From IMG/VR virus record IMGVR_UViG_2675903289_000005: a stretch of DNA of 4,942 bases. One strand, written 5' to 3'. The DNA comes from a virus. Its lineage: Duplodnaviria > Heunggongvirae > Uroviricota > Caudoviricetes. How positions within the stretch are numbered: the first letter of the stretch is position 1; every line of letters begins with the position of its first letter. The position numbers are program-made. Below are positions 4,027-4,942 of this stretch, piece by piece.

Positions 4027-4942
4027 CCCGCTCCAGCGAGATTTGAGACGAAGGTTGTTATTTGCACTGACACAATATTGTGTGGGAATGTCTGACTCCT
4101 TACCATCTCCTGTTCTGTGATGTTGTTTTGTTGCAGTTCCAGTGCTCTTTTTTCAGCACCAGAATGGTGCATTGTCGGTCAGGTTACGTAGTGAACCTCT
4201 GGCAGGGGACTGATGATTCATCATTCTGGTGTTGTAAATATCTCTTCGGACAACTTACAAAATATTCTAAGCAAACCCCGGGAACACACTCTTAACTGCC
4301 TTGGCTGGCGGTTTTTTGTACAGTGCTCGGTATGTGTGAGCTGGAAATCAGATTTTGCATGGACTGGAATCATGCTGTTATTTAGGGGCGAAGAACTGGC
4401 TTTTTCTTCCGCCTTCTCACCAGTAACGATTAGAAAAATAATGAAATGCCCCCCTCCGGGGAGGAGGACCGTAGAAAAAAGGACCCGCCAGCAAAAACAT
4501 TGGGGATGAACAGCTTTCGCTACTCAGATTGCTGGCGGGTAAAGTTCCTCATGAATTAAGAATGCTACGCGATCTTTTTTAATGGAAATGAAAATTATTG
4601 TCAATTAGTCGTGCGTGTTTTTTCATACAATATTGGTAAAGGTGATTCAGGCCATCAGAGTTTTGCTGATGGCCTTTTTTCTTTCCGATAGCACAGGTCT
4701 GTCGGGGGGCGGGATATGTATCAGATGGAAAAAATATCAACAGGCATTGCCTACGGCACCTCCGCCGGCAGTGCCGGCTACTGGTTTTTGCAGTGGTTGG
4801 ATCAGGTCAGTCCATCACAGTGGGCTGCGATTGGTGTGCTGGGAAGTCTGCTTCTGGGGCTTCTGACTTATCTGACGAATCTGTATTTCAAAATAAGAGA
4901 AGATAAGCGTAAGTGGATTTGCCCCTATATTTCTCGCCATCA

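Follow-up and report, generated by a model that had tools for sequence, protein, structure and literature searches.

A 20-nucleotide IS2 tip inside a pinholin gene of a Shigella sonnei-type prophage: a genuine IS2 insertion probably mis-rendered by draft-assembly collapse

Prophage decay driven by insertion sequences (IS) is a hallmark of Shigella, and simple insertions of IS2, an element of the IS3 family, are common in Shigella genomes. In finished genomes, such an insertion consists of the whole 1331-bp element with its transposase genes and a 5-bp target duplication, GTAAG in the case that concerns us here. Among lysis systems, the closest described relatives of the locus presented below are those of phage 21 and of DLP12, a cryptic prophage of E. 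coli K-12. In phage 21, the S gene codes for both the pinholin S21-68 and the antiholin S21-71, and acts together with the SAR endolysin R21 and the spanins. The antiholin character of S21-71 has been attributed to an extra positive charge at its N terminus (PMC9636201). DLP12 bears the comparable cassette essD-rrrD-rzpD, in which the holin gene essD is intact and ends in AARGE; the decay of DLP12 involves an IS5 copy in nmpC, and no IS lies in its holin gene. A further point of comparison is the collapse of repeats, with chimeric joins, in scaffolded short-read drafts of IS-rich genomes. The locus described here resembles each of these systems in part: it has the lysis gene order of phage 21, it belongs to a decayed prophage as DLP12 does, and its junction with IS2 has the features of a collapsed repeat.

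The window, i.e., the whole 4,942-nt stretch of DNA that was analysed, is as judged from its sequence a lambdoid prophage remnant of the Shigella sonnei type. It carries in order the end of an IS2, the stub of a DnaC-like gene, a DnaB-type helicase gene (138-1529), an 85-aa open reading frame (ORF), rusA, the gene for antiterminator Q, a run of N, an ORF6N gene with a second N run inside it, three tRNA genes and, from position 4716, a holin ORF that runs off the end of the window. In an exact-protein look-up, the helicase occurred in 3,506 index blocks. The loci of ten S. sonnei genomes, including that of strain 53G, are 100% identical to positions 1-2603, 2594-2733, 2970-3088 and 3114-4026 of the window and share its junction between IS2 and position 34. 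The DnaC-like ATP-binding replication gene (34..141, plus strand) is a 3′ remnant of about 36 codons cut by the left IS2: similarity to relatives begins exactly at position 34, and the end of the gene for the ATP-binding protein in locus L001 corresponds to position 141.

The first 33 nt of the window (1..33, plus strand) are the last 33 nt, i.e., the right inverted repeat end, of a 1331-bp IS2 located upstream, and are 100% identical to positions 9864-9896 of locus L022. In L022 this left IS2 is complete, spanning 8566-9896 with orfA/orfB called at 8657-9885. Inspection of its surroundings (L022 8546-9901) revealed no 5-bp target duplication, the flanks being GTTGC on the left and GCGTT on the right, and the element adjoins non-phage genes. 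Because of this missing duplication and these neighbouring genes, the left IS2 marks a deletion or rearrangement boundary at which the left arm of the prophage and most of the DnaC-like gene were lost. It differs at 31 positions from the IS2 found at the holin locus of S. sonnei (see below).

The holin gene at the other end of the window belongs by sequence and context to the S21 pinholin family. Its codons 1-66 (4716..4913, plus strand) code for an S21-type pinholin, or class II holin, matching the PF04971 profile with 119 bits against a cutoff of 26; residues 5-66 correspond to profile positions 1-62 of 64, a match that takes in both transmembrane segments. In alignment, identity over residues 1-66 amounts to 91% with S21 and 82% with EssD of DLP12, in agreement with the original prediction of an S21/EssD-like holin. 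Up to K66, the sequence is that of the 71-aa protein WP_000284485.1 without any difference, and the exact 71-aa MYQMEK holin occurs on about 1,000 contigs, making it a common allele. Met1 and an alternative start at Met4 (4725) are both present, and the extension between them, MYQ, contains neither Lys nor Arg, whereas S21 and EssD both begin with MKS; the earlier remark that this extension lacks the lysine is thus accurate. The dual-start motif that places an extra positive charge on the longer product is accordingly absent from the holin of the window, and because the extension adds no such charge, an antiholin role like that of S21-71 is improbable for the longer MYQ product. Small heptameric pinholes that depolarise the membrane are predicted for the protein solely from its 91% identity to S21. 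As in phage 21, the order in intact loci is holin, SAR endolysin and Rz/Rz1, the stop and start codons of the first two genes overlap as TAATG, and the endolysin is 93% identical to R21. Indeed, in loci L020-L029 and L036-L039 the holin gene is followed by a 165-aa lysozyme (PF00959, 93% identity to R21) and then by Rz, while the window itself covers the endolysin over 9 nt only. Two differences from phage 21 stand out, namely the uncharged MYQ extension and, in the copy hit by IS2, the exchange of the last 5 residues for 28 encoded by IS2.

Similarity to other holin genes always ends at position 4913, in 983 E. coli genomes, 8 phage records and 17 IMG/VR contigs alike, and beyond it the holin frame of the window reads WICPYISRH. 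The next 20 nt (4914..4933, minus strand; TGGATTTGCCCCTATATTTC) are those with which the right inverted repeat of IS2 begins, turned to the opposite orientation. They are identical at 20/20 positions to the right-end tip of IS2 and form a perfect inverted copy of positions 14-33, with 0.00 matches expected by chance; a switch to WICPYISRH at the start of an IS2-like repeat had been predicted and is borne out. At the same site, 18/18 relatives carry GCTGCGAGAGGTGAATAATG, which holds holin codons 67-71 (AARGE), the stop codon and the ribosome-binding site (RBS) and overlapping ATG of the endolysin gene. The last nine bases of the window (4934..4942, plus strand; TCGCCATCA) are codons 2-4 (TCG CCA TCA) of the SAR endolysin gene and keep the register of the intact locus. 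In 18/18 relatives, the native start of that gene agrees with them at 9/9 positions, +21 to +29 from the break, an in-register match with a chance probability of about 4e-6; their agreement with the continuation of IS2, CAGACATCT, is only 5/9. Because these last nine bases are the endolysin start exactly 20 nt past the break, 20 native bases are replaced one-for-one by 20 IS2 bases in the window. The resulting join at 4933/4934 has the form ...CCCCTATATTTC|TCGCCATCATT, the intact junction the form ...AAGCGTAAGGCTGCG... In the window, no microhomology occurs at the 4933/4934 join, no 5-bp target duplication is present, and the tip is followed neither by the continuation of IS2 nor by orfA/orfB. 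The earlier assumption that the IS continues to the end of the window does not survive these comparisons. Nor is the charged C-terminal tail missing, as had been claimed: intact relatives end in ...KRKAARGE, and the window keeps KIREDKRK and loses only AARGE (5/71 residues) and the stop codon. Since only 20 nt of IS2 stand at its right end, the segment 34-4913 is not bracketed by two complete inverted IS2 copies, and an IS2 end, 4.9 kb of prophage and 20 nt of inverted IS2 tip do not amount to a composite transposon.

A coincidence at the junction deserves mention. Over positions 4932-4940, the holin frame yields Ser-Arg-His from the IS2 sequence (TCC AGA CAT) as well as from the start of the endolysin gene (TCT CGC CAT). 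The 75-aa fragment encoded by the window is consequently the same protein as the fragment produced at a true IS2 junction, although the underlying DNA differs at 4/9 positions, and owing to this coincidence an exact-protein look-up of the fragment matched contigs with the true IS2 junction.

In finished genomes, S. sonnei carries two paralogous copies of the lysis region that are ~99% identical. Copy 1 lies at the locus with the helicase-RusA-Q-ORF6N-tRNA arm, to which the left 4 kb of the window belong, and there the 71-aa holin, the 165-aa lysozyme and Rz are intact in 10/10 finished or long S. sonnei assemblies examined; accurate assemblies of this locus thus hold a complete holin C terminus and stop codon, at odds with the original prediction of a truncated gene. 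Copy 2 belongs to another, heavily IS-ridden prophage and contains a complete, inverted 1331-bp IS2 at ...AAGCGTAAG|TGGATTTGCC..., with an imperfect pair of inverted repeats and with orfA/orfB antisense to the lysis genes. Beyond this element come the GTAAG duplication, GCTGCGAGAGGTGAATAATG, an intact endolysin gene (93% to the SAR endolysin R21) and Rz; after the left end of IS2, the full-IS2 form reads GTAAGGCTGCG... The endolysin and Rz genes expected beyond the IS are therefore found intact just past the full IS2 in finished S. sonnei genomes. A full IS2 with GTAAG on both sides occupies the identical junction in L036-L039, L046 and L047, and the junction runs on into full IS2 in L030-L033, L036-L039 and L045-L047. 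These include three further IMG/VR contigs with a junction into IS2, two of which (L046 and L047) display the complete element and GTAAG; in four Logan contigs the holin junction is followed by true IS2 sequence up to the contig end. With the insertion, the holin grows from 71 aa to a 94-aa fusion, and 1.3 kb come to lie between its gene and the otherwise intact endolysin gene. Look-up of the 94-aa fusion and of its alternative-start versions returned 234 index blocks, 18 of them with contigs >1 Mb; two of these 18 long records are apparently the chromosomes of 53G (4,988,504) and CP044191 (5,039,992), which also hold copy 1. A synthetic query joining the holin to full IS2 had no full-length match in the complete E. 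coli genomes of the collection, among which no insertion of IS2 in the holin gene was found. Copy 2 further bears an IS110-family element of ~1.45 kb about 10 nt upstream of the holin start (L036 8532-9981), and the window is free of this element at 4705-4709.

The 20-nt tip form was sought by guessing its read-through product and looking it up exactly, together with close variants. Among the matches listed, the in-register tip form occurs on five contigs of 480-10,181 nt, three of which contain N runs, from draft assemblies of a single accession series, namely GCA_001249065.1, GCA_001249975.1, GCA_001260315.1, GCA_001253935.1 and GCA_001258775.1, all with prefixes beginning in CX; among these same matches, none comes from Logan and none lies on a contig >10.2 kb. 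The tip form was likewise not seen, among the matches listed, in finished genomes or IMG/VR prophages. Four of the contigs (L034, L035, L041 and L042) have the identical 20-nt tip followed by the endolysin gene, and the fifth, L040, has 22-23 nt of IS2 (...TTTCCAG|CCATCA), still exactly in register and again followed by the endolysin gene; sibling contigs of the window run 190-250 nt into endolysin. Downstream of the tip, L041 carries copy-1 alleles (GCAGCT, GGTGGTGGGG), and L034, L035 and L042 carry copy-2 alleles. In L034 and L035 the 91-aa read-through ORF is accessioned in RefSeq as WP_252650247.1 under the name 'class II holin family protein', which is probably an artefact that has spread into protein databases. 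At the DNA level, the exact junction of the window is absent from the genome and viral contig collections; a relaxed pattern covering both junction forms had no match in metagenome contigs, a pattern in which the 20 nt were left free had none in the genome contig collection, and a 53-nt query across the junction had none in complete E. coli genomes.

The window displays several other signs of merging. Its single-nucleotide polymorphisms form a mosaic, with copy-1 alleles at 4215 (G) and 4218 (T) and copy-2 alleles at 4324 (T), 4877 (G) and 4904 (T). Another such sign is that the window lacks the IS110-family element of copy 2. The third tRNA gene (3960..4035, plus strand) consists of the body of tRNA-Thr and the last 9 nt of tRNA-Gly, with mismatches at 4022, 4024 and 4025 and an offset of 78 nt relative to all relatives; these all have four tRNA genes (Ile, Arg, Thr, Gly), and the 78-nt tRNA-Gly gene is missing from the window. 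The acceptor stem of this chimera would not pair, and ARAGORN still calls a tRNA-Thr. The short contigs L031-L033 and L035 begin exactly in the 3′ end of tRNA-Gly. The chimera is a join of two draft contigs or of two prophage copies. Inside the ORF6N gene, a run of 25 N (3089..3113) coincides exactly with the site at which the related IMG/VR prophage L017 (2398-3650) carries a 1250-bp IS911 with the target duplication AAC, and finished S. sonnei genomes have 0 nt and no insertion at this site. Because the window retains the final C of the AAC duplication beside the N run, the run is a mis-sized scaffold gap over a copy of IS911. A second run, of 236 N (2734-2969), stands where every relative has 59 nt, and represents either a mis-estimated gap size or an unresolved insertion.

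Taken with these signs, position 4913/4914 is probably the left junction of a genuine IS2 in codon 66/67 of the pinholin gene, mis-rendered in the window by draft-assembly collapse. In finished genomes, the affected locus consists of holin codons 1-66, IS2, GTAAG, holin codons 67-71 with their stop codon and with RBS and ATG of the endolysin gene, SAR endolysin and Rz/Rz1. A scaffolded short-read draft would have merged the two ~99%-identical prophage copies, one with an intact cassette and one with the IS2-hit holin; IS2 would have collapsed, its first 20 nt overwriting 20 native nt in the coordinate frame of the intact copy. A scaffolded draft is argued for by the allele mosaic, the Thr/Gly tRNA chimera, the 25 N at the IS911 site and the 236-N run. 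No single deletion can produce a crossover that varies in position (20 vs. 22-23 nt) yet always keeps the length, with either paralogue downstream; an assembly in which reads or contigs of the two copies were merged in the frame of the intact one can produce both, and the pattern is that of a collapsed repeat. The collapse would have been the work of an assembler, a scaffolder or a gap-filler. Velvet overhangs of k-1 (k=21 or 23) and edge-trimming by a gap-filler were considered as sources of the 20 and 22 nt and found no confirmation. In short contigs, N runs, allele mosaic and in-register overwriting of variable length, the locus is like repeat collapse as described for IS-rich drafts; it is unusual in that gapless in-register overwriting is rarer than a plain N gap. 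Unlike a simple IS2 insertion in a finished genome, the junction in the window lacks both duplication and transposase and keeps just 20 nt of the element, from its right end.

One observation against collapse is that the identical 20-nt tip is shared by the window and four or more independent assemblies, a pattern that a real lineage-specific deletion would also give. The corresponding alternative is a real IS2 scar in one sublineage of S. sonnei. Here nt 21-1331 of an IS2 inserted in the holin gene would have been deleted along with the 5-bp duplication and 20 native nt, so that a single 20-bp end of IS2 remained, the holin frame read through to 91 aa and the endolysin gene had neither RBS nor ATG. 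The parental IS2 insertion exists, and L034, L035, L041, L042 and the window share the same junction, and RefSeq lists the 91-aa product as WP_252650247.1. However, this course of events is unlikely, as it needs a 1336-bp deletion that restored the original length exactly and without microhomology, and separate in-register events for L040, with its 22-23 nt, and for L041, with the alleles of the other paralogue; moreover, among the matches listed, the form never appears in finished genomes, IMG/VR prophages or Logan assemblies. That the 20-bp tip is a heritable scar of an S. sonnei sublineage, left by near-complete and length-restoring loss of IS2, is accordingly judged improbable. Were it true, a pinholin would be fused to an out-of-frame SAR segment with the endolysin start deleted, an unusual solo-end footprint for an IS3-family element.

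A complete IS2 starting at 4914 at this very locus, so that a 4.9-kb segment lies between two inverted IS2 copies and the cassette is severed, would account for the 20/20 identity with the tip of IS2, in the orientation opposite to that of 14-33, and for the Logan contigs L031-L033, which pass from the tRNA-Gly side into true IS2 (CAGACATCT). This picture is nonetheless very improbable for the window, whose positions 4934-4942 differ from every IS2 copy at 4/9 positions and equal the endolysin start, whose sibling contigs run on into endolysin for 190-250 nt, and whose helicase-Q-tRNA arm lies, in finished genomes, at a locus with an intact holin. Since L031-L033 join tRNA-Gly-side sequence to the IS2 junction unbroken, which also counts against collapse, an IS2-hit holin may lie beside the tRNA array in some strains, for which, if this holds, the original prediction would be correct; such an arrangement would still not explain the last nine bases of the window. 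It had also been conceded beforehand that the 20 nt might be native holin-flanking sequence. This reading, like that of a chance resemblance to IS2, is refuted: 18/18 related loci have GCTGCGAGAGGTGAATAATG instead, 983 E. coli genomes align only to 4913, the 20-mer is expected 0.00 times, and it runs on into full IS2 in many genomes. Three other candidates were rejected. Another IS2-like element ending in ...TTTCTCGCCATCA would require a 28-mer that is absent from 5,426 E. coli genomes, and is also excluded by the nine terminal bases being the endolysin start of 18/18 relatives. One-ended attack or intramolecular inversion by IS2 yields products that invert the intervening segment or carry the whole IS, neither of which is seen. 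Editing of the sequence as the cause of the 20-for-20 exchange was set aside given the same in-register junction in five public draft contigs, four with the identical 20 nt.

If collapse is retained as the preferred explanation, the lesion relevant to lysis is the real IS2 of copy 2, which touches neither of the transmembrane segments of the holin and spares most of its charged tail. Because that tail is largely retained, loss of holin function is not implied, and the 94-aa fusion may still be membrane-active. Nor is the endolysin gene shortened or deprived of its own RBS and ATG, and Rz lies downstream of it. The main effect on lysis would rather be polarity, as late transcripts reach endolysin and Rz only after passing through 1.3 kb of antisense IS2. 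The claim of a severed cassette stands for copy 2, where the full IS2 splits the holin from endolysin and Rz, and fails for the window, where the endolysin resumes in register. Similarly, the prophages are indeed heavily IS-ridden remnants, as had been expected of a cryptic prophage, but both copies are defective through lesions other than the holin junction: in copy 1, the left IS2 cuts the replication gene and an IS4 interrupts the portal region, and copy 2 has IS110-family, IS911, IS1 and other IS3-family insertions.

The IS2-in-holin lesion is already known, since publicly available finished genomes of S. sonnei contain it with annotation, and as an ordinary IS2 event it has little biological weight. 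Its interest lies in what short-read assemblies of IS-rich genomes can make of it. A few bases of an IS end can overwrite native sequence in register, creating phantom fusion ORFs, one of them accessioned (WP_252650247.1), and phantom IS-bounded segments; junctions of this kind need comparison with finished genomes or raw reads before gene loss is deduced from them.

Two minor features of the window remain to be recorded. At 2603/2604, 164 nt are missing that are present 3′ of the Q gene in the ten S. sonnei loci, L008 and L034. A 10-nt direct repeat, GATTGGAACC, flanks this gap, which could be a real slippage deletion or a further assembly collapse. Finally, the tRNA gene at 3803-3879 is called tRNA-Met (CAT) by ARAGORN and tRNA-Ile by RefSeq for the identical gene in relatives; it is presumably of the lysidine-modified CAU type.
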